Shown: positions 2,154 to 17,259 of the stretch, piece after piece
Position numbering within the stretch: the first letter of the stretch is position 1
Layout of the letters: each line of letters opens with the position of its first letter
Source of the DNA: Oscillospiraceae bacterium
GTDB lineage: Bacteria > Bacillota > Clostridia > Oscillospirales > Acutalibacteraceae
Assembly (NCBI GenBank): GCA_031547365.1
Contig: JAVBSB010000052.1
Span: forward strand, 1-24,475
Reading direction: 5' to 3'
DNA: 24,475 nucleotides
The notes under the pieces: model-generated
The model's input: only the letters and a program-made list of their open reading frames with translations
What the model was told of the DNA's origin: nothing
Database searches by the model: none
Translations under genes and position numbers: made by a program

Positions 2154-2798
2154 TCAGCCAACTTCTATATATTCAATTGATTCATATTGCGAGGTAACTT
2201 TTTTTGCTTCGTCCAACAGCTGCTTGTTAAAAGAAAGCTCCTTATAGTCCATTTCGCCCTTCTTTTCGTTGTAGGCATCGGACCAGAGCTGTTCGCTCTT
2301 AAATTCGCCGTCTTTAATCGTCCAATAATAGCAGGAAAACGTGCTCATCCGGCCGCCTTCTACAAATATGCCGGGGAACGCTGTATTTGTAGAACGCCAG
2401 CTTTCATAATAAAACATATCAATTTTATGCCCCGCAATCGTCACCTTGCCGTTATATAAATATACATTGGCAAAAATGGAGCCGCCCTGAACATCGTCAT
2501 AATAAACCAAAATTAATTCGGGGGTTTTGTCGCCGTTCAGATCAGCCAAAAAATAATTGCCCGCATGATAAGGTTTTTCTTCGGCGTAATTGCTTGGATT
2601 TTTTAAGAAAGCATCATATGCGGCTTGCCATGGTCCGTTTGTCCATTCTGCGTTCACCGTGAGCTTTGTCTCTGCGGCGGTTTCGCTTATATCGGTTGAA
2701 GCAAATGCGTTGGTTTGCTCTGTTGCCACGCGATTGCAGCCTAAAAACAGCAACGCGATGATCAGTGCGAGCAAGAAAGCTATAGCTTTGGCTTTCAT
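2154..2798 (-). CDS. Hypothetical lipoprotein
   Basis: Signal peptide II MKAKAIAFLLALIIALLFLG-C, RBS AGAGG, and a DLNGDKTPEL Dx[DN]xDG-like Ca-binding loop. Confidence 0.8.
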   Translation of the reverse strand: MKAKAIAFLLALIIALLFLGCNRVATEQTNAFASTDISETAAETKLTVNAEWTNGPWQAAYDAFLKNPSNYAEEKPYHAGNYFLADLNGDKTPELILVYYDDVQGGSIFANVYLYNGKVTIAGHKIDMFYYESWRSTNTAFPGIFVEGGRMSTFSCYYWTIKDGEFKSEQLWSDAYNEKKGEMDYKELSFNKQLLDEAKKVTSQYESIEYIEVG

Positions 2799-2830
2799 TT
2801 ATATTCCTCTTTTCTCATGATACTGATTTT

Positions 2831-2859
2831 AGTATATAATATTCTGCTTTCTTTGTCAA
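2831..2859 (-). promoter_or_regulatory. SigA-type promoter for the lipoprotein gene
   Basis: TTGACA (2859-2854), 17 bp, TATACT (2836-2831). Confidence 0.8.
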
Positions 2860-2920
2860 GGCACAATCCCGGAGGTATTAATTGTTAAAAAAGCTGGATA
2901 CAAACGTATGGCACAGAACC

Positions 2921-2957
2921 AAAAGCGGCAAAGCTTGTTTTAGCCCTGCCGCTTTTT
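2921..2957. terminator. Bidirectional intrinsic terminator ending the sipW-srtB operon
   Basis: AAAAGCGGCA (2921-2930) / TGCCGCTTTT (2947-2956), just past the srtB stop codon. Confidence 0.75.
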
Positions 2958-2971
2958 GTGTTGTTATTATT

Positions 2972-3679
2972 TTATAAATTTATAATGCGTGCTGCCAGCA
3001 CGGTGCGTGCGCCGTCGAACTGGTAGGAGCAAGTGGACAGTAAAACGATTTGATCAGTCTGTGTCACTCCAATATCGCGGAACTGCTTTGCCTGCCGTTC
3101 CAGCGATTGCAGCAGCGCGCGCTGTTGTTCACCGCTGCGGGGCAGGGAATAGGTGACAGAGTCGGCGGCCTTGACCACGGCGCAGGCAAAAAACTCCAGC
3201 TTAAGCTTGCGGCTTGCCAGATATATCTCACCGGTCGGGTGTTGGTTGAAAAACTCTTCATCTCCAAAGCTGACAATCGCATGAAACATGCTGCCGTTGC
3301 GCATATTGTGACCGTATAAAATGGTGTTTTTTCCGCTGAAGTCGGGTGCGCAGCGGTAGTCCATAAAGATGGTGCCTGCCGTTGCGCTTTTACCGTGCAG
3401 GTCGTGGCGCAGATACGTCTCATTGTCGTTTGTCTGCACAAACGGGTACTCCACCTGTGTGCCGGAAATGCTCAGCCAGCCCACTACGTCTCGGTTCATC
3501 TCCTGCAGCTTTGTGACTTGCGGGTTTTCGCCCTGCGCATCCGAAGGCTTATAGCGCAACGCTTCTTCGTACATCTCGCTTTGCTGCTTATACGTTTCAT
3601 TGATGCGCCATAATTGCCAGCCGCTAACCGCAAGCACCGCAGTCAAAATCAGGGCGGCAACAACGCGCCAGGGCTTCAT
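2972..3679 (-). CDS. srtB: Class B sortase
   Basis: GWLSISGTQVEYPFVQ, GTIFMDYR, ILYGHNMRNGSMF, catalytic LSTCSY and RTVL. Start refined to ATG 3679 (RBS AAGGAG, ATGA overlap with the upstream stop). Confidence 0.92.
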   Translation of the reverse strand: MKPWRVVAALILTAVLAVSGWQLWRINETYKQQSEMYEEALRYKPSDAQGENPQVTKLQEMNRDVVGWLSISGTQVEYPFVQTNDNETYLRHDLHGKSATAGTIFMDYRCAPDFSGKNTILYGHNMRNGSMFHAIVSFGDEEFFNQHPTGEIYLASRKLKLEFFACAVVKAADSVTYSLPRSGEQQRALLQSLERQAKQFRDIGVTQTDQIVLLSTCSYQFDGARTVLAARIINL

Positions 3680-4983
3680 GCTTTGCTCCTTTTCTTCGGA
3701 TGCCAGAACAGCAGCGCGCGAAGACCTATCGCGCTGCATATCATCGCGCAGAACCATGGCAGGTAATTGCTCGGGTCGCCTGTCTTTGGGCTGCCGCCAA
3801 CTCCATTTGAGCCGCCATTTGCCGCCGCGGTTGTGCTGCGGGTCATTGTGGTTGCCGGAGTTGTTTCGGGATTTAGGGTGGTTTTGGCTTCCGTAGCAGT
3901 CAACGATACCGATTCTCTGGTTGTAGAGGTTGCGGACCGTGTAGTGCTTGTAATCGGCAGAGTTGTAGGTACGGTTGTAGTTGTGGATCGCGCTGTGGTG
4001 GTAGTAGGCGGTTCTGTACTAGTGGGCGGTTCCGTTGTCGTTTCGATTGGCGCTGTGGTTGTCTCTCCGGGATCTGTAGAGCTTTCGCCGGGATCTGTAG
4101 AGCTTTCGCCGGGAATCGTGGTCGTTTCCCCTGGGTCTGTCGTCGTTGGTTCCGGTTCGCTTGTAGTCGGCTCCGGCGCGGTGGTCGGCTCCGGTTTTTG
4201 ATATAAAGTATTGGTTATATATGTATTGATCACGCCGCCTGTGCCGGTACCGAACCCATTGTCTACGCTGACCGCATATCCTTCCGGTACAGGATTGGCT
4301 TCGCGCACGTCGTACTGTACGCCGAAGGGCAGGTTATAGGTTCGCGTTTCACCGTGCTTCAGCGTTATGGTTTCGCTGGCACCGTCCAGAATGACAACGA
4401 TTGCGAACGGTTTATTCAGATTGCCTGCGCCTGCCACAACCTTTCTTATCACCAGCTGTGCGGCGCCGTGCTGGTCCGGATAACCAAAGGTGTTTGTAAA
4501 AGCGGCGACTGTTCCGCCGGCAGGTATGTTGGCGTGATGGTTTGTGCTGCTGACCGTATAGCCCAGGCTGTCGGTTTCCACTAAGGTATATATTGTACCC
4601 TCGGGTAAGTTTTCAATAAGAGCGGCCTCGCCATGCTTAAGTTGGAATGTGCCGCCGCTGCTGATGTTGCTCACGGCTTCGCCGATCCGCAGGGGATATG
4701 ACGCAGTTGTATCAAATTCAATCCTATAGGTAAATGCAAGCTGTTGCTGTAGGAGCGTGAGCGGGCTGCCGTCGTCATTGATGACCGTATTTGTGACAAT
4801 CAGACCCTCAAAATCCTGCGGCGCAGCGGGGCTGTGTATGCCGGAGGCTGCGTTTGTGCGGTGCTGCCGCAAATCTGACCAGGCCATGGTTCCTGTGATA
4901 ACGGCAGAAAGTACAAAAATTGACGCCAGAATCGCTGCGCAAAGCTTTACTTTTAGACTGCGCGCGTTATTGCCTGTTGGCAT
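3676..4983 (-). CDS. Cell-wall-anchored protein with a SipW-type N-terminus, two beta-rich domains, a Thr/Pro/Glu-rich stalk and an SPKTG sorting signal
   Basis: N-terminus ...VITGTMA/WSDLRQHRTNAASG. C-terminus SPKTGD + hydrophobic stretch + PKKRSKA. ATG 4983 with RBS AGGAGG at 4992-4997. Confidence 0.85.
   Translation of the reverse strand: MPTGNNARSLKVKLCAAILASIFVLSAVITGTMAWSDLRQHRTNAASGIHSPAAPQDFEGLIVTNTVINDDGSPLTLLQQQLAFTYRIEFDTTASYPLRIGEAVSNISSGGTFQLKHGEAALIENLPEGTIYTLVETDSLGYTVSSTNHHANIPAGGTVAAFTNTFGYPDQHGAAQLVIRKVVAGAGNLNKPFAIVVILDGASETITLKHGETRTYNLPFGVQYDVREANPVPEGYAVSVDNGFGTGTGGVINTYITNTLYQKPEPTTAPEPTTSEPEPTTTDPGETTTIPGESSTDPGESSTDPGETTTAPIETTTEPPTSTEPPTTTTARSTTTTVPTTLPITSTTRSATSTTRESVSLTATEAKTTLNPETTPATTMTRSTTAAANGGSNGVGGSPKTGDPSNYLPWFCAMICSAIGLRALLFWHPKKRSKA
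4067..4114. repeat. Coding 21-bp tandem repeat (2 exact copies + partial) inside a 7-aa-periodic stalk
   Basis: CCGGGATCTGTAGAGCTTTCG at 4067-4087 and 4088-4108, encoding PGESSTD x2. Degenerate neighbours include PGETTTI, PGETTTA and EPTT. Confidence 0.9.
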
Positions 4984-5011
4984 GGGAACCACCTCCTGTC
5001 ATTGAAATCCG

Positions 5012-5037
5012 CCTGCGGGACAACGATGCCCCGCAGG
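5012..5037 (-). other. GC-rich intra-operon stem-loop without U-tract
   Basis: CCTGCGGG (5012-5019) / CCCGCAGG (5030-5037), directly after the stop of 5049..6032. Confidence 0.6.
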
Positions 5038-5048
5038 TCTTATTAATA

Positions 5049-6032
5049 TTAAGGCTGCGCCGGTGTGATACCGTATGCGGTCAGTACTTTCGCGGGCGCG
5101 CCGGTAAATGCAGCCGTGACGTCGGTGCTGTCTGCGGCGTCCATGTCAACGTGAACGGCGTAATAAAACGCGCCTGCGGGCGACTGAATGAGTGTGATTG
5201 ATTCCAGCAGCTTTGCGGTGGCTTCGCCGGGATTTAGCTCCTGCCCCCAATACGCCCAGCCCTCCGTACTGCTGTCGTCCAAAATCCATTTGGCAGCGGC
5301 TGTGCCGTCCCAATTGCTTAACTTTACAACCTGTGTCCCCAGCGCCCACTCCACATACTGGTGGAATGGGTCTGCCGCGGCGCTGTTCCAGCGGTGCGGC
5401 GTGTAGAGGCATTCGCCGGCGGCGTGGGCTGCGCGGTCGGGGTTATATGCTGCGCGCGTTACGCCGGGAACCAGAGAGGTTTTCGCGCCGGCAGCGGCAT
5501 AGCTGAGAATCATTTTTTTGCCATAGAGCCCGTTGTACCTTGTGTTTTCGTCGGTTGCATAATAGTAACGCGCCGCCGTATCATTGTAGGCTTTATATTG
5601 CTTGATCTGTGCGTCATTTATGATTAGCCGGGGGTAGTTTGCGGTCAGCCAGACCTTTAGGTTTGCTGCTGTATCCGCGGCTGCAAAGCTGCCGTCGCTG
5701 TGCACAAGCAGATACTCGCTCGTATAAGTGTAGTCCACCTGCGCGACATCCATAAACTCTTTCAGCTGCATACGGATAAACACTTTACCTTCGCCGCTGT
5801 TTTTGACCCAAACTTTTTTTGTCAGGGTTTCGTCGGTATTCCACTCGTCAGGCTGTTCATAATCTTCAATCAGCACAACATCCTGTAAGGCGGTGCTGCC
5901 GTCGCCCGTAGCAATATTGGTTTTGTGCTGGCTGTGGTCCTTCCATGCCCAGGTTCCGCCGAGGATGCTCAGCAGCGTGAAAAGCGCCGCAAAAAGAGCC
6001 AACGCTTTACGATGGGATGATATAAAACGCAT
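5049..6032 (-). CDS. BsaA/TasA-like SipW-dependent biofilm matrix/fibre subunit 2
   Basis: SipW-type signal ...ILGGTWA/WKDHSQHKTNIATG. KKVWVKNSG..VFIRMQLKE and GWAYWGQELNPGEATAKLLESITL blocks. Clear paralogue of 8505..10082. Confidence 0.8.
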   Translation of the reverse strand: MRFISSHRKALALFAALFTLLSILGGTWAWKDHSQHKTNIATGDGSTALQDVVLIEDYEQPDEWNTDETLTKKVWVKNSGEGKVFIRMQLKEFMDVAQVDYTYTSEYLLVHSDGSFAAADTAANLKVWLTANYPRLIINDAQIKQYKAYNDTAARYYYATDENTRYNGLYGKKMILSYAAAGAKTSLVPGVTRAAYNPDRAAHAAGECLYTPHRWNSAAADPFHQYVEWALGTQVVKLSNWDGTAAAKWILDDSSTEGWAYWGQELNPGEATAKLLESITLIQSPAGAFYYAVHVDMDAADSTDVTAAFTGAPAKVLTAYGITPAQP

Positions 6033-6068
6033 AATAAACTTCCTTCTTTCGCCAAAGGTAAAGAGCTT

Positions 6069-8432
6069 TTACGAGGCTATCTGCGTGCCGAGCAATTCGC
6101 TTTTTACCCATACGGCAACGCGGTAGGGTTTGCTCAGCGCGGGTGCGGCTGAACTGAGCGTACCGGCAGGCGTAGCTGAGCCGTCAACAAAAGCGACCTG
6201 TGTGTTGTTGTCCGTACGCAGCCAATAATTCTGTTTGGTTCCCAGCTTGCCGTAGTTCGCCAATGCTTTCGGGTTGGAGCTGGTCGTATTATACTTCGCG
6301 CTGCAAAAACGCGCCGCTTCGCCGTAACTGAGCGCAAAGCCGATGTCGTTCGTCGTTAAGCCGTTATTCAATACGCTGTTGGGTATGCTCAAATTAGCAG
6401 CAGAGCCATATGTGCCCATTTTGCTCATTGCGTTGTGGGTGACCAAATAACTGCGAATAGGGGAGTTTGAGGGCAAGGTGCTCTTCATAAAGGTATTGAC
6501 CGCTGTGCGCATTGCGCCGGAGGTATACCCGGTTGCCGTTGCGCCGGCATCGATTTGAGCTACGCGCAGCATCAAGCTGTAGCGCTGTTCGAAAATATCG
6601 GAGTAGGACGCGATTTCGATCCAGGCGGAGCTGTCCTTCGCTTCGGACGCGCTCAAAGTGCGGCCGGTACGGGGCGCGGGCGTGCCGAGGTTGTCCGGTT
6701 CCGGGTCCAGCGGCCAGGGGTTGAATACCGTTTTCACGCCGTTAACCAGCGGGATTTCGACTGTCATATTGTTAATGATATGCTTTGCATACGCGACCGT
6801 ATCAGTGGCTGCGATTGGATTTGGGGTAAATACCAGTTCGGTGGTCCCTACTGCTTCCCAAGTGCCGTCGCTCATCACGAACCAAAAATATAAGCCTTCC
6901 GGGTCAAATGGGGTGCCGTTAATTTGCTGAATCGCCTCGCCCGAAATTGCCAGTCTCACTGCGGTGGCAGGCGGCGGAGGCGCTACGCCGTTAGTCAGCG
7001 GAACGATTGTATACATACTGTTATAGAATACATAAACTTCCGTTGTATCCGCTGCAATTTTTGAGGGGAAAAAGCTGCAATCCGCAAGGTCCACCGGAAC
7101 CCGGCTGGAATCGCTCATTTCAAGGAAAAATTCAATGTTGGTGCCGATAAAGGACTTTCCGATGATTTGCTCTACAGCCGTACCCCAATGGTTAAAGCCG
7201 GTGACCGTCGGGGTTGGCGGGACGACAATGGGCGTGGTGCCTTCGATTTGCAGCTTGTATGCTACGGCGGCATAGACTGTATGGCTTATGCCCCATTTAT
7301 CGGTCACTTGACCGACAACACCGGTAAAGCCGGGTTGTGCGCCCTCCTTCGGCGTAATGCGGTTGCCCGATACGGTGATGAAGTCATCCTCTCCGCCGAC
7401 CGGAGCCCAGGCAATGGCACCTGTTCCGTTTAAGGCTGCGGAAATATCCGAGCCCTCTTCGTCCAGCAGCAGCATACCAAGATGCGGCAGACCAACGGTA
7501 TTGATGCCGTCCGGCTTCGCGACCTGATAGTTTGCGCGTCTTCCGTATTTACCTGTCAGTGTAGTGGAAATAATCTGCGTAATTCCGGGTGCGTTCCCGG
7601 TTACGTCAGCAGAGCCTGATGTTATCTTCAGGACGCTCGCGTGCTCGTTGTATGAGCTGATCCATCGAGCCTGTCCCGGCATTTTTTCCGTTACGGTGCT
7701 GCCCACGTCCAGCTGCTTATAGCTGGGGTTTGGATTTGTAAAGCTGTAGCACGTATTCCCTGCGGACAGGGAAAGCTCCGTGCCGCCGTCGTCTGCTTCA
7801 ACTCCATAGGCGACGGTAAAATAAATTGATTGTGTTATACCGTATTTATCCATAAATGTGCCGCGCGCGGCTGTTATGCCGGGCGTGGCATTTGTTTTCA
7901 CAGTAATTTGCTTTCCGGATACAGTGATAATATCATTGTCCCCGGCTTGTGGCTCCCATGTAATGCTTGACTCCAGCCCCGAAGGAACCGTTGTAACCGG
8001 AATTTCGGCTTCGGTGTCACTGAGTCCGATCGTTGTTGAGGCGCTGCTTAAAACGACAGACGATATTCCGTCTGCATTGTATATCTGATAGTTTGCGCGC
8101 CTGCCAATTTTTCCTGTCAAAGATGTGGAGATGATCTGTGCTACACCGGGGGAAATACCTGCAACCTCGGCAGTGCCGGAGGTCAGCTTCGTAGCTTGGG
8201 CAATTGCGGCGTTGGTACTGGTCCAATATCCCTGCCCGGGCATTTTTTCTGTTTCGGTGTCGCCAACGGCAAGTTGCTTATAGCTTGGGTTTGGATTGGC
8301 ACAATCGACTCGTACCGCAGGCGCAAGTTGAACAGCCAGGGTTGCGCTAACCAAAGCAATCACTGCCGAAACAGCGATTGCCGCAGCCACAACGATTGCA
8401 ATCAATCGTTTGTTCCGCTTATGCGTTTTCAT
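6069..8432 (-). CDS. Large exported repeat protein, putative adhesin (Ig-like repeats + DUF6273-like C-terminus)
   Basis: Basic + hydrophobic N-terminus ending VSATLA. Two ~187-aa repeats starting NPNPSYKQL (codons at 8297 and 7736), two ~70-aa repeats ending VPLTNGV / IPLVNGV, and C-terminal FALSYGEA...YWLRT...RVAVWV. Confidence 0.7.
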   Translation of the reverse strand: MKTHKRNKRLIAIVVAAAIAVSAVIALVSATLAVQLAPAVRVDCANPNPSYKQLAVGDTETEKMPGQGYWTSTNAAIAQATKLTSGTAEVAGISPGVAQIISTSLTGKIGRRANYQIYNADGISSVVLSSASTTIGLSDTEAEIPVTTVPSGLESSITWEPQAGDNDIITVSGKQITVKTNATPGITAARGTFMDKYGITQSIYFTVAYGVEADDGGTELSLSAGNTCYSFTNPNPSYKQLDVGSTVTEKMPGQARWISSYNEHASVLKITSGSADVTGNAPGITQIISTTLTGKYGRRANYQVAKPDGINTVGLPHLGMLLLDEEGSDISAALNGTGAIAWAPVGGEDDFITVSGNRITPKEGAQPGFTGVVGQVTDKWGISHTVYAAVAYKLQIEGTTPIVVPPTPTVTGFNHWGTAVEQIIGKSFIGTNIEFFLEMSDSSRVPVDLADCSFFPSKIAADTTEVYVFYNSMYTIVPLTNGVAPPPPATAVRLAISGEAIQQINGTPFDPEGLYFWFVMSDGTWEAVGTTELVFTPNPIAATDTVAYAKHIINNMTVEIPLVNGVKTVFNPWPLDPEPDNLGTPAPRTGRTLSASEAKDSSAWIEIASYSDIFEQRYSLMLRVAQIDAGATATGYTSGAMRTAVNTFMKSTLPSNSPIRSYLVTHNAMSKMGTYGSAANLSIPNSVLNNGLTTNDIGFALSYGEAARFCSAKYNTTSSNPKALANYGKLGTKQNYWLRTDNNTQVAFVDGSATPAGTLSSAAPALSKPYRVAVWVKSELLGTQIAS

Positions 8433-8467
8433 CAGGTTACCCCCTATAAAAAGTGAACAACCAGCCG

Positions 8468-8485
8468 GGGCGGCTTGCGCCGCCC
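8468..8485 (-). other. GC-rich intra-operon stem-loop with GNRA loop, no U-tract
   Basis: On the - strand: GGGCGGC-GCAA-GCCGCCC, 19 nt after the stop of 8505..10082. Confidence 0.6.
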
Positions 8486-8504
8486 GCAGCAGATTTTTCA
8501 GTTG

Positions 8505-10082
8505 TTATTTATACATGTTGATGACGGTGAAGTCAGCGGTTTTGCCGGAAACGGAATCGGTGAGCGTAATCACGACGGGGACCTCCAGTATCCAGCCTGT
8601 GCCGTCGACAAAGTTATCTTCATTTAAGAAATCAACCCAGCTCATTAAGCATTTGGAGATAATCTTGCCATTGCTGATATAAATATCCGAGCTGGTGTAG
8701 GCATAACCGCTGGGGCTCTGGATATTGGTAATTTGAATGTCTGTAAGATTGACGCCCTGTCCGGAGACGATGATGTTGCCAAGCGGGATTTCGATGTGTC
8801 CTATTGCGCTGAACAAAGCGGCTTCCTCGTAGTCCAGGGTCATTTCCCAGTCTTCTTCGTCCCAAGGCTCGAACGTATCGGGATCCTGTGTCTGTGCATT
8901 GAAGAAAATGCGATCGTTTGAAGTAGCAGGTCTGTAAGAGGTTGAAAGTAGGTTGAGCGCAAGGTCGCCTGTGCCGCCTGTGCTGGTGGCGGCTTTCAAT
9001 GCTGCCACAACTGTGGCGTTGTCTGTCGCCCAGCCATCCAGACCCGCAAAGTCAACCGCTTCCATATCCGCGTGTACTGCATAGTAGAAGTTGCCGTCGG
9101 GCTGTTTATCGAGCTTCATCGTCTTAAGTAAATTTTTTGTGCTTGCGCCCGGCAGAACCGCTGCGCCCCAATATGCCCAGGCGTCGGTTGTTGTTCTGTC
9201 GTCAAGAATCCACTTGTTAACGCTTTCGCCGCCGCCTGTAATCCAATCGGAATAAAGAATCACATCAGCGCCGAGCTGCCACGAAATATATTCGCGGAAC
9301 GCATCGGATACCCCGCCGGTTTTCCAAGTGTGGGCGGTGAACCCGCATTCGATGTCGGAGCCATTTTCGTGACCGTAATCTTTGTCGTTGATCAACGCGT
9401 GGTCAACTGCGGTTGTGCCGTCTACAGTGACAGCGGTTGCGCCGGCAGAACCGCCTGCGACGGGGAGTTTGCGGCCGTACTGACCGTTGGGATCGCCTGC
9501 TTTTGTGCGGACATAGTAGTACTCAACCGTGTCATTGATTCCCTGCGCCAAAACGAAGTCCGCAGCCGTTAATGCCTGGACATAATCGCTTGCGCTGCCG
9601 CCGTTAACAACGTTTGCCCACTGCGCGTCGTTTTTGATGGTGGTCAGGTTTGCGGGGACAGAGGGATCAAGCGTTGCCGCAAAGCGTACGAATAAGCCGT
9701 CTGTACGTTGAATCAAAAACAGAGAAGGCTTCGTTTGGCTGTTTTCAATAAAATAGTCATAGGAGACCGCAGTGATATCCATGTATTCTTTCAGCGAAAT
9801 GCGCGTATAGATGCTGACGTACTCGTCGTCGTCAAACTGTGAGGTTCCGCCGATATTTTCAACGCGGATCTCTTTGGTGACGGGCGGATCGGATGTTTTC
9901 CAGTTCTTCGAGTTCTCAAAGTTTTCTACCAGATTGGCCATTGCCAGGGTACCCTTGCCTTCGTTGTGACCGGTTGCCTGGTCAAATTTTACGAAAGCCG
10001 CGTATGTGCCGCTGACCAATATGGCCAGCACGATCAGGGCGGCCGCCGCTGCAGCCAGACGTTTCTTGGTTTTGCTTTGCAT
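8505..10082 (-). CDS. BsaA/TasA-like SipW-dependent biofilm matrix/fibre subunit 1 (with C-terminal extension)
   Basis: SipW-type signal ...ILVSGTYA/AFVKF. KEIRVENIG, YTRISLKEYMD, WAYWGAAVLPGASTKNLL and FYYAVHADMEAVD blocks. RBS AAGGAG. Lies immediately downstream of sipW. Confidence 0.82.
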   Translation of the reverse strand: MQSKTKKRLAAAAAALIVLAILVSGTYAAFVKFDQATGHNEGKGTLAMANLVENFENSKNWKTSDPPVTKEIRVENIGGTSQFDDDEYVSIYTRISLKEYMDITAVSYDYFIENSQTKPSLFLIQRTDGLFVRFAATLDPSVPANLTTIKNDAQWANVVNGGSASDYVQALTAADFVLAQGINDTVEYYYVRTKAGDPNGQYGRKLPVAGGSAGATAVTVDGTTAVDHALINDKDYGHENGSDIECGFTAHTWKTGGVSDAFREYISWQLGADVILYSDWITGGGESVNKWILDDRTTTDAWAYWGAAVLPGASTKNLLKTMKLDKQPDGNFYYAVHADMEAVDFAGLDGWATDNATVVAALKAATSTGGTGDLALNLLSTSYRPATSNDRIFFNAQTQDPDTFEPWDEEDWEMTLDYEEAALFSAIGHIEIPLGNIIVSGQGVNLTDIQITNIQSPSGYAYTSSDIYISNGKIISKCLMSWVDFLNEDNFVDGTGWILEVPVVITLTDSVSGKTADFTVINMYK

Positions 10083-10154
10083 GGTTTAACGCTCCTTTTT
10101 CTTTAAACATTGTTTCATTGTGTTATTTGTCTGTATTTAAACGGATTTACCCGG

Positions 10155-10892
10155 TTAAACGTTTTTGGTTCGTCTTGTTTTTTTCTCTTTCTTTTTTCTT
10201 GGCTTCCTTTCGCCTTCCTGCTTTTTTTCTTCCTTGCTTTTTCGCGGCTTACCTAAAGCAATGCGCAGGAAGAAAGACAGCGCCAGCAATCCGCCGAACC
10301 ACAGCAGTATCAGCAAGAGATGATCCTTTACGAACTGCAAAATGCTCCCAAGCAGGGGGATGGATAAAATGACTACGCCCAGCACATTGTCCGCGTGCGT
10401 GATATCCAGGTCCGGAGAAATGTTTTCGACGCCCTTTGTTTCAAAGCCGCGCTTGCCGTTTTCATCAAAGTTGCCCAGAATGCCGACTACCTTATGGGTT
10501 GTGGTTTTATTGCCGTTATTTGAAAAGAAGGTGATGTTTTGACCAAGCTTTATCAGGTTGGGGTCGGTTTTTTTGACCAGTACAAGCGAGCCCTTCGGGA
10601 TTTCGCGCTGCATACTGCCGGAAAGGACGTTAAAGACATAAAAACCGGCGATATCCCGTGCGCCTCTGTCCCCCGCGTTGGTAGCGCATATGACCGCGAC
10701 AAAGCAGGCAAGGACCAGCGCGACACAAAAGATGATGTTTGACACAGCCTTCCAAACGACCTTGCTCTTGCCTGTGCCTTTCGGTTCCGGCGGCGCGCTG
10801 TGGCATGCGCCGGACTCAAGCATAGTCAGCAGCTCGTCAACAAAAGCTTCATCTTCAAGGTATTCATCAATATATACCTCTGGCACCATCAT
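10155..10892 (-). CDS. sipW: Signal peptidase I, SipW (ER/archaeal type)
   Basis: NVLSGSM (catalytic Ser codon 10614-10616), TTTHKV (His codon 10494-10496), ETKG..N..D, two TM segments and a Lys-rich tail. Start moved to 10892 because the promoter at 10942-10970 lies inside the longer ORF call. Confidence 0.9.
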   Translation of the reverse strand: MMVPEVYIDEYLEDEAFVDELLTMLESGACHSAPPEPKGTGKSKVVWKAVSNIIFCVALVLACFVAVICATNAGDRGARDIAGFYVFNVLSGSMQREIPKGSLVLVKKTDPNLIKLGQNITFFSNNGNKTTTHKVVGILGNFDENGKRGFETKGVENISPDLDITHADNVLGVVILSIPLLGSILQFVKDHLLLILLWFGGLLALSFFLRIALGKPRKSKEEKKQEGERKPRKKKEKKTRRTKNV

Positions 10893-10941
10893 AACTTTTT
10901 TACATTCCTGTGTTTTTATTTTCCGGCTTTCACACGCTATC

Positions 10942-10970
10942 ATTGTAACGTGTGAATGTATAAATGTCAA
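10942..10970 (-). promoter_or_regulatory. SigA-type promoter of the sipW operon
   Basis: TTGACA (10970-10965), 17 bp, TACAAT (10947-10942). Confidence 0.8.
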
Positions 10971-11105
10971 CAAAGTCAGTGTGCTAATAGGTGAAGAATG
11001 CGGATATAAAAACACATAGCACAAAATATGGAAACGTCTTTGTAATTCGATGCCAGTTTCTGAAACGCGCCTGCTAACATATTCCAGAGATAAATCGCTA
11101 AGCTT

Positions 11106-11148
11106 AAAAACAACCTCGCTGTCTTAACATGACACAGCGAGGCTGTTT
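11106..11148 (-). terminator. Intrinsic terminator after the GRE fusion gene
   Basis: CCTCGCTGT (11114-11122) / ACAGCGAGG (11134-11142), with an A5 run on + giving a U-tract on -. Confidence 0.75.
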
Positions 11149-11166
11149 ATTCTTTTAAATGATGCC

Positions 11167-14100
11167 TTATCCGTAGCAGGTACGATTGATAATAACTTTC
11201 TTTAAGTCGTCCGAAAGCTCGTTAAAATAGGCGCAGTAGCCCGCCACGCGCACCATCAGGTATTTATATTTTTCGGGGTGGTTATAGGCGTCGAGCAGCA
11301 GGTCGCGGCTGATGATATTGGGCTGGAATTGCATCCCGCCGGTGGTCAGAAAAGTCTTGAAGATTCCGCCGAGGTTCTTAACGCCCTGTTCGCCGGGGAA
11401 CAGCGCTGCGTCGATGGTGAACGTTGCGGTGGTACCGTTTACGGCGTAGTCGGTAAAGTTCACCTGCGCCAGCGCGTTAAGGGAGCTGAGCAGATCCGCC
11501 TTTTCCATGCCGTAGTGCGGCGCGACGCTGTTGGCCAAAGGCACGCCCTTACGCCTGCCGGAGGGCAGCGCCTGCGTCTTAATACCATATCGATCGCTGA
11601 CGTTGAGCGCGTAATAGCCTGCGGTGTATTGTCCGTTGCGCAGCGCATAGGGACACGCCTCAAGCGCTTCGTTATATATCTGCATCACGCGGCTGACCCA
11701 GCTTGCGGCGTCAATTGAGCTGTCATCGCCAAACTTGGGAACCGCCAATAAATCCTTGCGCAGCGATTGATGCGCTTCACCCTCAAAGTTCGCGTCGATC
11801 GCCTGTATCACCTGCAACAGACTGTATTTTTTCTGCTTGAACACCAGCTCGTCAATGGCATACAGCGAATCCGCAACGTCTGTCACGCCGACTGCCTGAA
11901 TGCCCGCGGTGTTGTATTTTGTGCCGCCCTCATATGCGTCCTTGCCGCTTTCCATGCAGCCCCGATACAGCGACGAAGCCAGCGGCGTTGTGTAGTATTC
12001 GCGCAGCGCCCTTTCGATGGTCTGCTGGTCGTCAAGAATGGATTTCGCAAGGGCGTTCAGCCGCGCCTTAAAGCGCGAGAGCAGCTCGGTCATGTCCTTC
12101 GGCGGGTTGTATTCATATAGCCCGCGCTTTCTGTTTCGTTTAACAATAGCTTTTTCGCGCCGTTCGGCAAGGTCGGGCTTCGCGAATTCGATTACGCGCG
12201 TGACCATTTTTTCTACCTGCAAGCCAAACCCGAAATTCCACAGGTCATGCTCATGCCCCTTCAGCGCCTGCAGCAGCGGCAGGGCAAGGTTCATATTGGC
12301 GCTGTCGGTGTTGCCAAAGTGGTCGTCGCTGGCAACAGGCTCCACGCAGCCAACGATGGAATAATTGCGCGCGTTTTCGATCGTAGTGTCATAGTGCTTT
12401 GTTAGGGTGTCAAAGTAGATGTTGTCGCTGAACAGCTCCGGCATTGGGCAGCCGTTGATGTATATTTCCGCAAGTCTGTCAAGGTAACGCGCGGGATTTT
12501 TTTCGTGGATGCGGGCGCACATATTGATGGCTAAGGGCTGCAGCTCGCAGGCGTCAATGCACATGTAGGTCACGTCGTTGACGGCGTCGTTGCCGTCTTT
12601 GTCTACGCCGCCGAAGGTCAGAGCCTGGTCGACGGAAAGCGTCTCAAACAGCTTACTGACGTTCAGCAGACCGTCGCCGTCGTTGACAAGTATTACTTCA
12701 TCCATCTTCAGCACAAACAGGCACAGCAGCTCTTTTGCTTCTTCATAGGTAATGCGCCCGGCCTCCAGGTCCCGCCTGAAGTATGGAAATAATATCTGGT
12801 CAATTCGGCCGAACGACACCGCGTTTTCATAAGCTTCGATGCACAGCGCAATCTGAAGAAACAGCATGCTCTGCAGCGCCTCGTGAAAGGTGCGCGCGGG
12901 GTGCTTTGGCACGCGGCGACAGATTGCTTCCATTTTTTCAAGCTCAGCCCTTCGCGTACGGTCGCTCTCGTTGACCGCCAGCGTGCGCAGCGCCTGCGCA
13001 TATCGCTCTGCCCAGATTTCCAGGGCGTCCAGCGCAATCAAAACGCCTCTGTAGAAATCCTGGTTATTTTCAGGGTGCGCCTTTGCCATGGCGCGGGCTT
13101 CTGCCTTCAGTCCCGTTGTACCCAGCTCCAATATGCGTTCAAAGTTAACGACATAGTGGGCAATGGCGGCAAAGTTATTGTTAAAGCCGGTGGAGGTTTC
13201 CGCAATGCGCGCCAGATTCAAAAAAAGCTTGCCGAAGCTGGTGTGTCCGCGCATGACGGTGCTTTTGTTGAGCCAGTAGGGAAAAATATGCTTGTAAAAA
13301 TAGCTGCGCTCCTCCTTCGTGGAGCTAAAGGCAACGGGTGTTTGCTTTGCTGCCTTGTAGAGAAAGGTGACATACAGCGTACCATATTGCTCCTCCCAGA
13401 TTTGCCCCGCAACACGCTTGCTTGTGAAGTTGCCGACCAGCAGCTCGCCGGGATAGACGATGGTTTTTTTTCGCCCCAGCACATAGTGCAGGCGCTGTGC
13501 GCGGTGAATTGCGACAGGCTTTTTGAAGCCGTCATATTTTTTATAGTACTCTGTCTTGAGCCTGGAAACTTCAAAGCAAATGGAGCGTTCGCTTTCGCGT
13601 ATGGCGCTCTGAATGTCCAGTACACGCTGCGTGAATTGTGCCTGCGGCGGATTTTCAGCAAGGTCGTCGTTGCGGGCGGAAACGCCGTATTGCCGGAACA
13701 GGTCAATTCCTTTTTTCAGCGAAAACAGGCTTTGCTCCGGCGTAATGTTCAGCTGCGGTATTTCCAGGTCCAGCCGCGCCGCTTTGCCCTCGTACATGTT
13801 GTGGTACTTCATCAGCTCAATTTGGTCAAAACCGAACGATTTGATATACTCTGCCGCAGCCTTAATCTGCGCTTCGCTGTCATTTAAGCCCGGCACCATC
13901 AGCATGCGTATCCTTAGATTCGCGCCCCGCGCAACGAGCTTTTCAAAATTGCCGTGTATGAGCTTGTCGTCCTTACCTGTCAAGTCCTTATGTACCTGCG
14001 CGCTGCCGACGAGCTTCAGGTCAACGAGAAAAAGATCAATATATGGCAGCAGCGCCTCTATGGTTTTCCACGGCGCACAAAGAGCGGTCTCTGCCGCTAT

Positions 14101-14608: not shown

Positions 14609-15295
14609 GTGTCAATGAAGGATGACTATCTGCCAAATGAAAAATATCGCAATATGTTCGGAGTAGAGCGCAACGGTTATGGTTGTGAGCGTGTAGACCT
14701 TTATCTTGCGCAGCTGGAAGTTGCGTTTAAAAAAATTCGCGAGGATAACCGCAACCTCAAGCGTGAGCTGACAGAGCAAAGCCCTGCGTATACAGGGGCA
14801 GCCTCCCCGCGCGAGGGCGAGTTGATTGCGCAATTGGAGCAGCAGGGGCAGTACATAATGCAGCTGCAGGCGCAGCTGGCGGAACAGCAGGAGTATAGCC
14901 GCCAGATGACAGGGACGCTCGATATTAACGCAGATAATCCTAACGACGCGCTGCTTGTGCAAATAGAGGCCTTGCGCGGCGAGGCAGACGCATTGCGGCA
15001 GCAATTGCGCCGCCAGGCAACCGGCGCGCCGGCGGTAAACGAAGAGGAACAACAAAATATGATCGGCAAAGTGCTGGTCGAAGCGCGCTCGCAAGCGGAA
15101 GAAACCTTGCGCAACGCAAGGCAGGAGTCCGACGCTATGATGCGCAAAGCCCGCCAAAAGGTGGAGGAGCTGCGCAGCGAACAAGAACGCGTCCAGAGCC
15201 AGCTGCAGGCAATATCTTACGGTTTGCGCAACGTTTTGCGTGGTACTGCGGGTGCGGAATATCAACAGCGGGGTGAAGATTTTGCGGCATCTTGA
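14609..15295 (+). CDS. DivIVA-domain coiled-coil protein
   Basis: N-terminal FGVERNGYGCERVDLYLAQL matches the DivIVA F..RGY..EVD.FL motif. C-terminal LVEARSQAEETLRNARQESDAMMRKARQ resembles the DivIVA C-terminal coil. GTG start with RBS AGAAAGG (ATG 14615 is an alternative). Confidence 0.75.
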   Translation: MSMKDDYLPNEKYRNMFGVERNGYGCERVDLYLAQLEVAFKKIREDNRNLKRELTEQSPAYTGAASPREGELIAQLEQQGQYIMQLQAQLAEQQEYSRQMTGTLDINADNPNDALLVQIEALRGEADALRQQLRRQATGAPAVNEEEQQNMIGKVLVEARSQAEETLRNARQESDAMMRKARQKVEELRSEQERVQSQLQAISYGLRNVLRGTAGAEYQQRGEDFAAS

Positions 15296-15989
15296 AAAGA
15301 AAACAACCGAGCTGTCTCCTGAAGCCAGAGCCTTTATAGACGAGGTCGATCAGCTGGCGGGCGAAGTGCTTGTCGCAGACAAAGAATTGGCTATGCCCAT
15401 CAGCCGAGAGCACGCAAAAAGAATGAAAACGCTGGCTAATGTTTTTTATGTTGTTGTAGTTGTGCTGGGCTTGCTGGTCGGGTTTGTACTGCTGCTCAAC
15501 CGTTACGCAAGCAACGGTATACTTGGTATGCGCTTTTTTGTGGAGCAGACCAACGCCATGAATACAACGGTGCCGCGCGGTTCACTGCTGGTCACCGTAA
15601 CGCGCTCGAGCGAAAAAATCAAGAAAAACGACATTATAACCTACTATGCCGTTCAGACGGATCCTGACACCCGCCTGACCCGTATCGTAGACGAGTGCTT
15701 AAAAACCAACGGCATTCCTTTCTTTCGCACAAGGCGCGCAGGCAGCGCGCAGCCGGACAGCATGCTGATCAATATGACGAACATTCTCGGCGTAAAGCTG
15801 GCAATCATACCTTATGCCGGTTATGTCATATCGTTTATACAGACCTATGCATACGGATTTGCGGTGCTGGCGGCCGCGATGTGCGTTGCTGCGATTGCGC
15901 TGCGCCGCTGGTCGTTTAAGGAACATCCCGAAATGAAAAAGAAGCGGAAAAAGAAGAACAAAGGAAAGGTGCGTCATGCGGACGTATAA
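15282..15989 (+). CDS. SipW-like (peptidase S26) protein, probably catalytically inactive
   Basis: Co-linear with SipW: VPRGSLL, IKKNDIITY, NILGV, IPYAGYVISF, two TMs and a Lys-rich tail. SGSM is TNAM and THK/RV is LTRIV. TTG start at 15282 with RBS GGGGTG. Confidence 0.75.
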   Translation: MRHLEKKTTELSPEARAFIDEVDQLAGEVLVADKELAMPISREHAKRMKTLANVFYVVVVVLGLLVGFVLLLNRYASNGILGMRFFVEQTNAMNTTVPRGSLLVTVTRSSEKIKKNDIITYYAVQTDPDTRLTRIVDECLKTNGIPFFRTRRAGSAQPDSMLINMTNILGVKLAIIPYAGYVISFIQTYAYGFAVLAAAMCVAAIALRRWSFKEHPEMKKKRKKKNKGKVRHADV

Positions 15990-17259
15990 CTCGGAAGAAT
16001 CGCTGCCCAAGCAGGCGATCGCTCTGCGCGTTCGCATTCTTCGGTTGCGCATCAGCACTTTTTTTGCAGGCAGACGGATTCGTTCGCTACGCAGTAAAGA
16101 GCAATCGAATATCATTCCGCGCCGCTGGCCTTTTGTAGGGTGCCTGCTGCTTTGTCTTGGCGCGGTTGTGTCCGCGATTGTGCTGTCGGTTTTAGCGAAC
16201 ACGCAGCCGCAGCTGCATAATCTTGACGGCAGCTTTGCGAGCGTGGATAAAGTGGTTATCCTGGACCCGAACAGCAAAGACGAAACGATGCTTTCTGCGG
16301 GCTATTTGTACGACAGACCGATTGCGGTTGTGCAGACCGGTACTGACCCGGTTCTGCTGCGCATCCGTCTGGAAGAAACGCTGCTTACTGCCGCGCACGA
16401 TGAAAACGGTCGCGTTGTGTCAGTCAAGCCTATGATTGACCCGGGCGAAAACTGGGAGCCGCGCATGATTGAACAGGATGCGGCTTTGGAAATTCTGCGT
16501 AAAAATGGGTACTGCAAGGCGACCGACACATGGGACGATGCGCTGGAACTGAAATTGCCCGAAGCGCGGATGCCGGGCGGCAACGACGGCGGCCGTCTAA
16601 TGGTGTTTGAGAAAAAAACTGTGATCGCCGACCCCGATTCACCCATCCCTGACATCAGCGTGATGCGTCCGGAGGACATTGAAGCCTATGATTTAGGCAA
16701 GACTTCTTATGATTATATTGGATTTTATTATATCAACGTTGGCGGCAAGCAATATTATCAACCGCTGCATATTGCTGTAGATGATGATGCGCCGCGCAAT
16801 CCGACGCAAAGCCCTCCGAATATTACGAACATATCCTATGAGTTTTACCAGTGGGATATAAAGGAATCGCAGGTACATCAGTTCGGCGCGGAGCAAAACG
16901 GACCGGTCAATTTGCAGCTGGGTCATCTGCGCCCGATTGCTGAATGGACAAAGCCGGAGGATGCATGGTTTTATGACATAGACGGCTGGGTATACTACGG
17001 GCAGGCGCTGTCGTCCGGTTTGATGACCCCTCTGCTGCTGCAAAGCTTTTCTGTTGAGCCCGAAAGCCCGCTGGTACAAAACGAAACGCGCTACCGCCTT
17101 GGGGAACGCGCACAAAGCGTTTCGCTTGATTTGAACTCGGTCATATCCATTTGGAATAGCAACACACCGCTTGGCACGCTCGGCACGAGCAACATGAGCA
17201 ACGAATCGCTGCGGCTGGTGCAGGGTATTTTAAGCGCGGCAGGAATAAAAGAAGAATAA
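15976..17259 (+). CDS. BsaA-like paralogue with an Arg-rich cytoplasmic N-terminus and a TM anchor
   Basis: VVQTGTDPVLLRIRLEE and DGWVYYGQALSSGLMTPLLLQSFSV align to blocks in 5049..6032 and 8505..10082. Hydrophobic segment at about aa 52-73. RBS AAAGG. Confidence 0.7.
   Translation: MRTYNSEESLPKQAIALRVRILRLRISTFFAGRRIRSLRSKEQSNIIPRRWPFVGCLLLCLGAVVSAIVLSVLANTQPQLHNLDGSFASVDKVVILDPNSKDETMLSAGYLYDRPIAVVQTGTDPVLLRIRLEETLLTAAHDENGRVVSVKPMIDPGENWEPRMIEQDAALEILRKNGYCKATDTWDDALELKLPEARMPGGNDGGRLMVFEKKTVIADPDSPIPDISVMRPEDIEAYDLGKTSYDYIGFYYINVGGKQYYQPLHIAVDDDAPRNPTQSPPNITNISYEFYQWDIKESQVHQFGAEQNGPVNLQLGHLRPIAEWTKPEDAWFYDIDGWVYYGQALSSGLMTPLLLQSFSVEPESPLVQNETRYRLGERAQSVSLDLNSVISIWNSNTPLGTLGTSNMSNESLRLVQGILSAAGIKEE

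Follow-up and report, generated by a model that had tools for sequence, protein, structure and literature searches.

How is a fibre of the TasA/BsaA type fixed to the cell that builds it? Such fibres are major biofilm scaffolds of the Firmicutes, and their fixation is poorly understood. The question is raised by an operon in contig JAVBSB010000052.1 (GenBank assembly GCA_031547365.1, Oscillospiraceae bacterium), whose 24,475 nucleotides (nt), analysed here at full length, are called the window. On its minus strand, a gene for a protein of 435 amino acids (aa) stands between the gene of a 327-aa BsaA/TasA-like subunit and that of a class B sortase. The encoded protein, referred to below as the anchor, combines an N-terminus resembling that of the subunit with a cell-wall sorting signal, and from the evidence presented here it is probably the wall-attached end piece of a donor-strand fibre of the TasA/BsaA type. 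The source assembly comprises 1.18 Mb and is 69% complete, and in a search of public reads most of the region was held by one run only, an invertebrate-gut metagenome.

The N-terminal strand, the stalk and the sorting signal

The first-pass annotation of the window, made from the sequence alone, had noted that the mature N-terminus of the anchor resembles that of the 327-aa subunit and that the remainder of the protein is unrelated to it, and our comparisons bear this out. The presumed mature N-terminus of the anchor, WSDLRQHRTNAASG, and that of the subunit, WKDHSQHKTNIATG, were identical at 8 of 14 positions, and BLASTP aligned residues 20-51 of the anchor with residues 12-43 of the subunit at 47% identity over 32 residues (E 1e-7). 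When the whole proteins were compared by BLASTP, nothing significant was found beyond leader and strand. Similarly, the subunit profile A2 covered only residues from about 13 to 50 of the anchor, and no match of the anchor to TIGR04090 or PF12389 was obtained. Cleavage of the leader after T-G-T-M-A34 would be expected by analogy with TasA and BsaA. The model TIGR04088 aligned with residues 18-35 of the anchor, including the hydrophobic part and G-T-x-A, at 12.8 bits (E 0.1), under its cut-off of 19, and none of the seven N-termini on which it was run scored above the cut-off.

In a homology search the full-length anchor gave 3 matches, with the Thr-rich stalk swamping the result, and an exhaustive search was hence run with residues 1-265, which yielded 1667 relatives, mostly through the immunoglobulin-like (Ig) repeats. 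In 29 of the best 150 relatives the motif QH.T[NG] followed directly after a leader ending in G-T-x-A, and most of these 29 ended in x-P-[KQ]-T-G-D. The earlier interpretation had been staked on the conservation of the segment AW.D..QH.TN..G, and this segment is the best-conserved part of the anchor family: among 26 aligned relatives, about 35% identical overall, W35, Q40, H41 and T43 were invariant and N44 was present in at least 90%. Because many of the 26 carry an extra CnaB domain inserted straight behind the segment, the strand can be regarded as a separate module. In genome-wide searches with the N-terminal half of the anchor, only the Ig domain was matched in other genomes and no orthologs were found. 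Moreover, two other proteins of the operon, of 525 and 787 aa, possess the leader and lack the motif, and therefore the motif is not simply a requirement of SipW, the signal peptidase encoded in the operon. That the segment would behave like a donor strand is supported by its conservation, by its disorder in the modelled monomer and by its predicted docking, both of which are described below.

The remainder of the anchor has the build of a stalk. Two DUF7601 domains were recognized (PF24547, E 4e-23). In the AlphaFold2 (AF2) model of the monomer (predicted local distance difference test, pLDDT, 90.1; predicted template modelling score, pTM, 0.83) both Ig domains were complete, and residues 1-24 of the mature protein were unstructured, with a pLDDT of about 50. 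The structures matched to the Ig domains by Foldseek were the pilins PitA, PitB and Spy0128/T-antigen, Cna B repeats, Cpa and GBS52. Behind them lie 134 aa composed of 35% Thr, 14% Pro, 10% Glu and 10% Ser, which probably serve as a wall-spanning spacer. Polymerisation of the anchor with itself by strand exchange was considered and rejected, both Ig domains being complete in the model. As a separate observation, the first strand of Ig domain 1 (4468-4812) reads IVTNTV, against ITKTV in most relatives, and a small clade (P0001, P0002 and P0008) is without the Lys of the usual CnaB-type internal isopeptide in this domain; Ig domain 2 of the anchor retains IRKV...ITNT.

Near the C-terminus, SPKTG (residues 398-402) fits the (S/P)PxTG form of the motif used by SrtB of Clostridioides difficile, of which SPKTG is a substrate motif (PMC4155245). 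SPKTGD is followed by a hydrophobic stretch and then by the basic tail HPKKRSKA. The sortase encoded next to the anchor scored 190.9 bits against TIGR03064 (cut-off 153.75) and has the His of YGHNM, the Cys of LSTCS and the later Arg. These sequences support the reading of the anchor C-terminus as a complete SrtB-type sorting signal adjoining an intact class B sortase. The anchor gene starts with an ATG at 4983, with AGGAGG 7 nt before it, and its stop codon (TGA, 3676-3678) overlaps the sortase ATG (3677-3679) as ATGA. The TIGR03064 alignment of the sortase begins at this overlapping Met, and the ATGA overlap noted before as a sign of translational coupling is thereby confirmed.

Predicted docking and the proposed attachment of the fibre

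Complex prediction was carried out with residues 44-327 of the subunit, from which leader and own strand had been removed, and residues 35-172 of the anchor, with alignments for both chains. The complex scored 0.61, the best of three controls 0.02, and the docking of the N-terminal segment that had been postulated in the first-pass annotation thus gains support from modelling. In calibration, 58 of 80 solved complexes and 2 of 110 mismatched pairs attained the score mark, which is a rough guide only, own alignments having been used. Across the runs the contact agreement was at least 58% and the pLDDT of the partner at least 73. In the model, residues 3-17 of the mature anchor lie antiparallel to residues 288-299 of the subunit and are flanked by residues 63-72; K72 of the subunit touches N44 of the anchor (expected error 1.9 A), and the interface includes E56. 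Among 11 orthologs in the family of the 327-aa subunit, D32, Q35, H36, N39, E56, E59 and K72 were invariant. In the BsaA fibre of Clostridium perfringens, an intermolecular isopeptide connects N35 of the donor strand with K74 of the acceptor, helped by E56, and this has been confirmed by mutants (PMC11580942). Judged from the model and from this analogy, a covalent Asn-Lys lock between anchor and subunit is plausible.

Taken together, these features suggest the following course of events. The anchor would be exported by Sec, and the SipW of the operon would cut its leader after Ala34, as is done in related systems. Cleavage would free the flexible segment WSDLRQHRTNAASG, a mimic of the N-terminal strand of the 327-aa subunit, and modelling suggests that the freed segment could enter the open groove of a subunit of the 327 type as a beta-strand. 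Asn44 would come to lie beside the invariant Lys72 and Glu56 of the subunit, where a spontaneous Asn-Lys isopeptide, as in BsaA, could lock the pair. At the other end of the molecule the class B sortase would, by what is known of its family, cut SPKTG and join its Thr to peptidoglycan, with the Thr/Pro stalk spanning the wall. The outcome would be a fibre tied to the wall by an anchor that is itself covalently bonded at either end. Neither Ig domain could accept a strand, both being complete, and hence the anchor could cap only the groove end of the fibre.

As to the role assigned to the anchor in the first-pass annotation, strand donation and wall anchoring are backed by comparison and modelling; the further proposal that it ends polymerisation gained no support. 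By analogy, a nucleator arriving first, like TapA, would fit the sequence as well as a terminator arriving last, like PapH or ElrB, and the published BsaA model together with the behaviour of TapA favours a starting role.

Several observations weigh against the interpretation of the anchor as a fibre end piece. One of the three complex runs scored only 0.27, and since TasA filaments have been solved (8AUR), the complex score may partly reflect a memory of such complexes. The AF2 monomer of the 327-aa subunit was too poor for a fold search (pLDDT 49), so that its TasA-like fold is indicated by weak family matches only, and a sequence search of the PDB with the subunit profile returned no TasA or other fibre protein, its matches being chance ones in the Ig-like extension at the C-terminus. 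The Asn of the strand is replaced by Gly in the ortholog P0008 and in P0034, and therefore the covalent lock cannot be universal. In locus L012, the anchor strand has a better fit to foreign subunits than to the BsaA-like genes found there. In addition, two sorted stalk proteins with the strand are encoded in genome G243 (97% complete), which has a SipW-SrtB pair elsewhere, and no BsaA/TasA-like gene was found in it with three profiles. Either the acceptor in G243 is too diverged to be detected or the segment is used there in another way. Since these stalk proteins occur without a detectable subunit, some members of the family may have a role other than fibre anchoring.

A wider proposal may be advanced tentatively, as a possibility that is on balance doubtful. 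The QH[KR]TN segment could be a portable, self-locking docking tag, which is freed by SipW, inserts in a TasA-like 'catcher' and forms a spontaneous Asn-Lys isopeptide. Together with the sortase linkage at the opposite end, and with no pilin-polymerising sortase involved, the peptidoglycan and the tip of the fibre would thus be connected by an unbroken covalent chain. Stalk adhesins in the hundreds and the giant subunits that carry adhesins bear this tag too, which would then constitute a general plug-in system by which different proteins are mounted on one fibre. The strand could also serve protein engineering as a natural tag/catcher pair, and the residues singled out for mutation are N44 of the anchor and K72 and E56 of the subunit.

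Operon layout, relatives and competing explanations

The features of the locus are listed in Table 1. The order of transcription on the minus strand is a promoter-like element (TTGACA-17-TACAAT, 10942-10970), SipW, the 525-aa protein, the 787-aa protein, the 327-aa subunit, the anchor and srtB, and the operon of the anchor ortholog P0002 (58% identity) has the identical order. The SipW-type peptidase matched TIGR02228 at 82.9 bits (cut-off 51.85) and keeps the catalytic motifs SGSM, THK and TKG. The 525-aa protein matched the subunit profile A2 over positions 4-322 (E 3.8e-57) and TIGR04090 (E 1.6e-8), and the 327-aa subunit matched TIGR04090 with E 3.5e-13, below the cut-off; two orthologs of the latter have weak matches to PF12389. 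No match of the 787-aa protein to profile A2 was found.

Table 1. Positions of the anchor, its parts and the other elements of the operon in the window
Feature	Position	Strand	Basis
Class B sortase gene, 235 aa	2972..3679	-	TIGR03064; His/Cys/Arg motifs
Anchor-stalk gene, 435 aa + stop	3676..4983	-	Open reading frame and ribosome-binding site; PF24547 DUF7601 x2; ortholog P0002
Cell-wall sorting signal: SPKTG (3778-3792), D, hydrophobic helix, HPKKRSKA	3679..3795	-	Read from sequence
Thr/Pro-rich low-complexity stalk, residues 263-396	3796..4197	-	Composition
Ig domain 2, residues 173-262	4198..4467	-	AF2 model; second PF24547 stretch
Ig domain 1, residues 58-172, DUF7601 / CnaB-pilin type	4468..4812	-	AF2 pLDDT above 90; Foldseek
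N-terminal extension, residues 35-57, motif W-x-D-x-x-Q-H-R-T-N-x-x-x-G (N44)	4813..4881	-	Conservation, models
SipW-type leader, residues 1-34, ends T-G-T-M-A	4882..4983	-	Hydrophobic leader read from sequence
GC-rich hairpin between 327-aa subunit gene and anchor gene	5012..5037	-	11-bp stem
327-aa BsaA/TasA-like subunit, predicted acceptor of anchor strand	5049..6032	-	TIGR04090, complex model
787-aa exported protein	6069..8432	-	No family match, no donor-strand-like motif
525-aa BsaA-like subunit, differing strand (AFVKFDQATGHNEG)	8505..10082	-	Subunit profile A2, TIGR04090
SipW-type signal peptidase	10155..10892	-	TIGR02228; SGSM, THK, TKG motifs

The hairpin in front of the anchor gene lies in an 81-nt stretch with a folding energy of -30.7 kcal/mol (z -3.2), a stability attained by 0 of 200 shuffled sequences. 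A similar pair of hairpins is present at the same place in locus L056 and not in L003. By analogy with other pilus operons, the hairpin may lower the dose of anchor and sortase and so set a high ratio of subunit to anchor. Contigs from a metatranscriptome library of the invertebrate-gut study to which the above metagenome run belongs matched parts of the srtB, 327-aa, 787-aa and 525-aa genes (window 2700-11200) with 0 letter differences; none of them matched the anchor gene, and these contigs indicate neither transcription nor its absence. The window also holds a second module (14609-17259) with a DivIVA-like protein, an inactive SipW and a membrane-fixed BsaA paralogue.

A BsaA-like gene was present in nine loci with informative flanks and stood directly upstream of the stalk gene in eight of them, as read from the DNA (the window, L003, L056, L116, L117, L119, L044 and L050); in L012 it is present and not adjacent. 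In three further contigs, considered without DNA, a Cna_B/DUF7601 gene is found directly behind a subunit ortholog. The gene pair recurs across uncultured gut Clostridia. The strands differ by clade, with the types QH[KR]TN, QQA.NE and DHKTN, and in three separate clades the anchor strand scored highest against a subunit encoded in the same locus, a score matched by 0 of 23-28 foreign strands.

Other observations were made in these neighbourhoods. At L116:5115-13443, L117:1730-5602 and L119:56-2161, giant proteins of 701-1358 aa begin with a complete BsaA-like subunit domain and a QHKTN strand (profile E about 1e-73) and continue into Big_2, FIVAR or DUF6273 modules; they adjoin anchor-like genes, and their sequences suggest fibre subunits that carry adhesins. 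At L012:5731-11541 and L117:8960-10309, anchor-like genes have DivIVA-like genes and a sortase beside them, in L012 together with a SipW-like peptidase, an arrangement that recalls the second module of the window. In genome G308, three paralogues of the 327-aa subunit lie in tandem behind a SipW gene, and the strand of each reads WVDYDQHK[ST]NEFNG (L090:5484-8481); SipW genes number four in this genome, and another of its contigs (L047) carries srtB and an anchor-like gene. In G243 the stalk genes stand alone: the neighbour of one encodes a group II intron reverse transcriptase, and recombinase genes lie near the other; the coordinates of the two stalk genes and of the SipW and SrtB-like genes, which adjoin each other, are L048:3201-5885, L052:1218-4772 and L110:9697-11450.

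Among the competing explanations, it seems rather unlikely that the anchor is a terminator, which would be added last at the membrane-proximal end, stop growth and then have the fibre sorted to the wall, as would be the case in a system of the PapH or ElrB kind. PapH is a precedent for a terminating role, the final geometry would be the same as that proposed above, and the anchor gene is the last before srtB and lies behind a hairpin that could lower its dose. ElrB of the WxL pilus of Enterococcus faecalis likewise unites an N-terminal donor strand, the lack of an acceptor domain and LPxTG (bioRxiv 10.64898/2026.10.17.759780). However, in the BsaA model the strand of the older subunit enters the newest, membrane-tethered subunit (PMC11580942), which leaves the open groove at the oldest end, and therefore a donor-only protein would act first and not last. 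In function the closest relative is TapA, which acts as a nucleator (PMC10151520).

It is unlikely that the anchor is an independent SrtB-anchored adhesin, with an Ig stalk like those of the MSCRAMM adhesins, that merely shares export through SipW, its segment being an extended element for SipW recognition or processing, or having some other role without docking. The family is large, with its 1667 matches in the Ig region, and dozens of members of 400-1300 aa that combine a leader of the SipW type with x-P-[KQ]-T-G-D signals resemble ordinary adhesin arrays; the two such proteins that stand alone by mobile elements in G243, where no BsaA-like gene was detected, also speak for this explanation. 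On the other hand, signal peptidases seldom constrain 10 or more residues past the cut, and the two operon proteins that have the leader do not have the motif. The motif matches the strand of the co-encoded subunit in three separate strand types, the segment lacks order in the monomer model and its predicted docking far exceeds the controls, and the subunit gene is directly upstream in eight loci.

That the anchor is a pilin polymerised by a sortase, as in the FCT / PI-2 kind of pilus, with SipW as a helper like SipA/LepA and the BsaA-like proteins forming a separate structure, is very improbable: the Ig domains do resemble Spy0128/T-antigen, PitA and PitB pilins, and FCT / PI-2 loci likewise pair a signal-peptidase homologue with a sortase, but the YPKN-type pilin motif (YPK) was not found in the anchor, a disordered Thr/Pro spacer of 134 aa before the sorting signal is typical of wall-anchored proteins and not of shaft pilins, SipW retains the catalytic motifs and SipA does not, the sortase is of class B, which in the C. 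difficile kind is an anchoring enzyme (PMC4155245), and the conserved strand would be left unexplained.

Comparison with known systems

If the anchor is the wall-attached end of the fibre, the locus unites sortase anchoring with isopeptide-locked donor-strand exchange, two principles of Gram-positive fibre building that are usually regarded as separate, and it offers a clean design for cell fixation, with a strand-only cap, a pilin-type stalk, an intact sorting signal and a sortase of its own.

The closest counterpart in layout is TapA (YqxM) of the tapA-sipW-tasA operon of Bacillus subtilis (PMC10151520, PMC9674648). Like the anchor, it is a minor protein with a SipW-cleaved leader, encoded together with SipW and the fibre subunit, and it has a short N-terminal segment that resembles and complements the subunit strand. 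It also has a complete Ig-fold domain that cannot accept a strand, and it has been linked to fibre anchoring and assembly (PMC10151520, PMC9674648). Unlike the anchor, TapA has neither a sorting signal nor a sortase, and its V-set Ig fold is unrelated to DUF7601/CnaB. The TapA/YqxM model was absent among the NCBIfam matches of the anchor, and the resemblance is one of layout only. The attachment of TapA is non-covalent, the BsaA fibres of the C. perfringens strain that has been studied are membrane-bound, and an isopeptide triad is not known from TasA.

ElrB of the E. faecalis Elr (WxL) pilus shares with the anchor an N-terminal donor strand, which matches the pilin consensus, the lack of an acceptor domain and a C-terminal sorting signal (LPxTG, helix and basic tail). 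Its predicted place is the base of the pilus, and when the sortase is lacking the pili are shed; its role also draws on AlphaFold models (bioRxiv 10.64898/2026.10.17.759780). It differs from the anchor in the WxL fold of its fibre, in the requirement for the membrane chaperone ElrE, in its SrtA sortase and in its size of 13 kDa without folded domains.

Similarly, the basal pilins GBS52, FctB and SpaB have CnaB-type Ig domains, a spacer and a sorting signal, and at the fibre base, where they are found, a non-polymerising sortase attaches them to the wall. Unlike the proposed anchor, they have no SipW leader, and their link to the shaft is a Lys-Thr bond made by a sortase and not a donated strand. 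C. difficile SrtB substrates such as CD2831 and CD3246 have the (S/P)PxTG motif and are attached to peptidoglycan by a class B sortase, as is proposed for the anchor (PMC4155245, PMC4591827), but they are stand-alone adhesins with ordinary signal peptides and without a fibre-type N-terminus.

In the bsa locus of C. perfringens, srtB lies beside sipW-bsaA-bsaB-bsaC, and most strains have a BsaB homologue bearing LPXTG (PMC7395162, PMC11580942). SipW, BsaA-like donor-strand subunits and a neighbouring class B sortase are common to this locus and the window, and the Asn-Glu-Lys lock has been shown for BsaA. Genes for LPxTG proteins, SpaA domains and sortases are often near BsaA/TasA genes, and the authors of the BsaA study speculated that the sorted BsaB paralogue ties the BsaA fibre to peptidoglycan (PMC11580942). 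Fibre anchoring by a sorted protein is thus an idea already present in recent papers, and the locus described here is a variant of it. The difference is that the sorted protein of C. perfringens is a paralogue of BsaB, which is TasA-like, whereas that of the window is a pilin-type Ig stalk that keeps the strand only; anchoring is putative in both. What is particular here is the combination of a strand-only, pilin-type stalk with an intact SPKTG signal, a translationally coupled SrtB and a predicted Asn-Lys contact.

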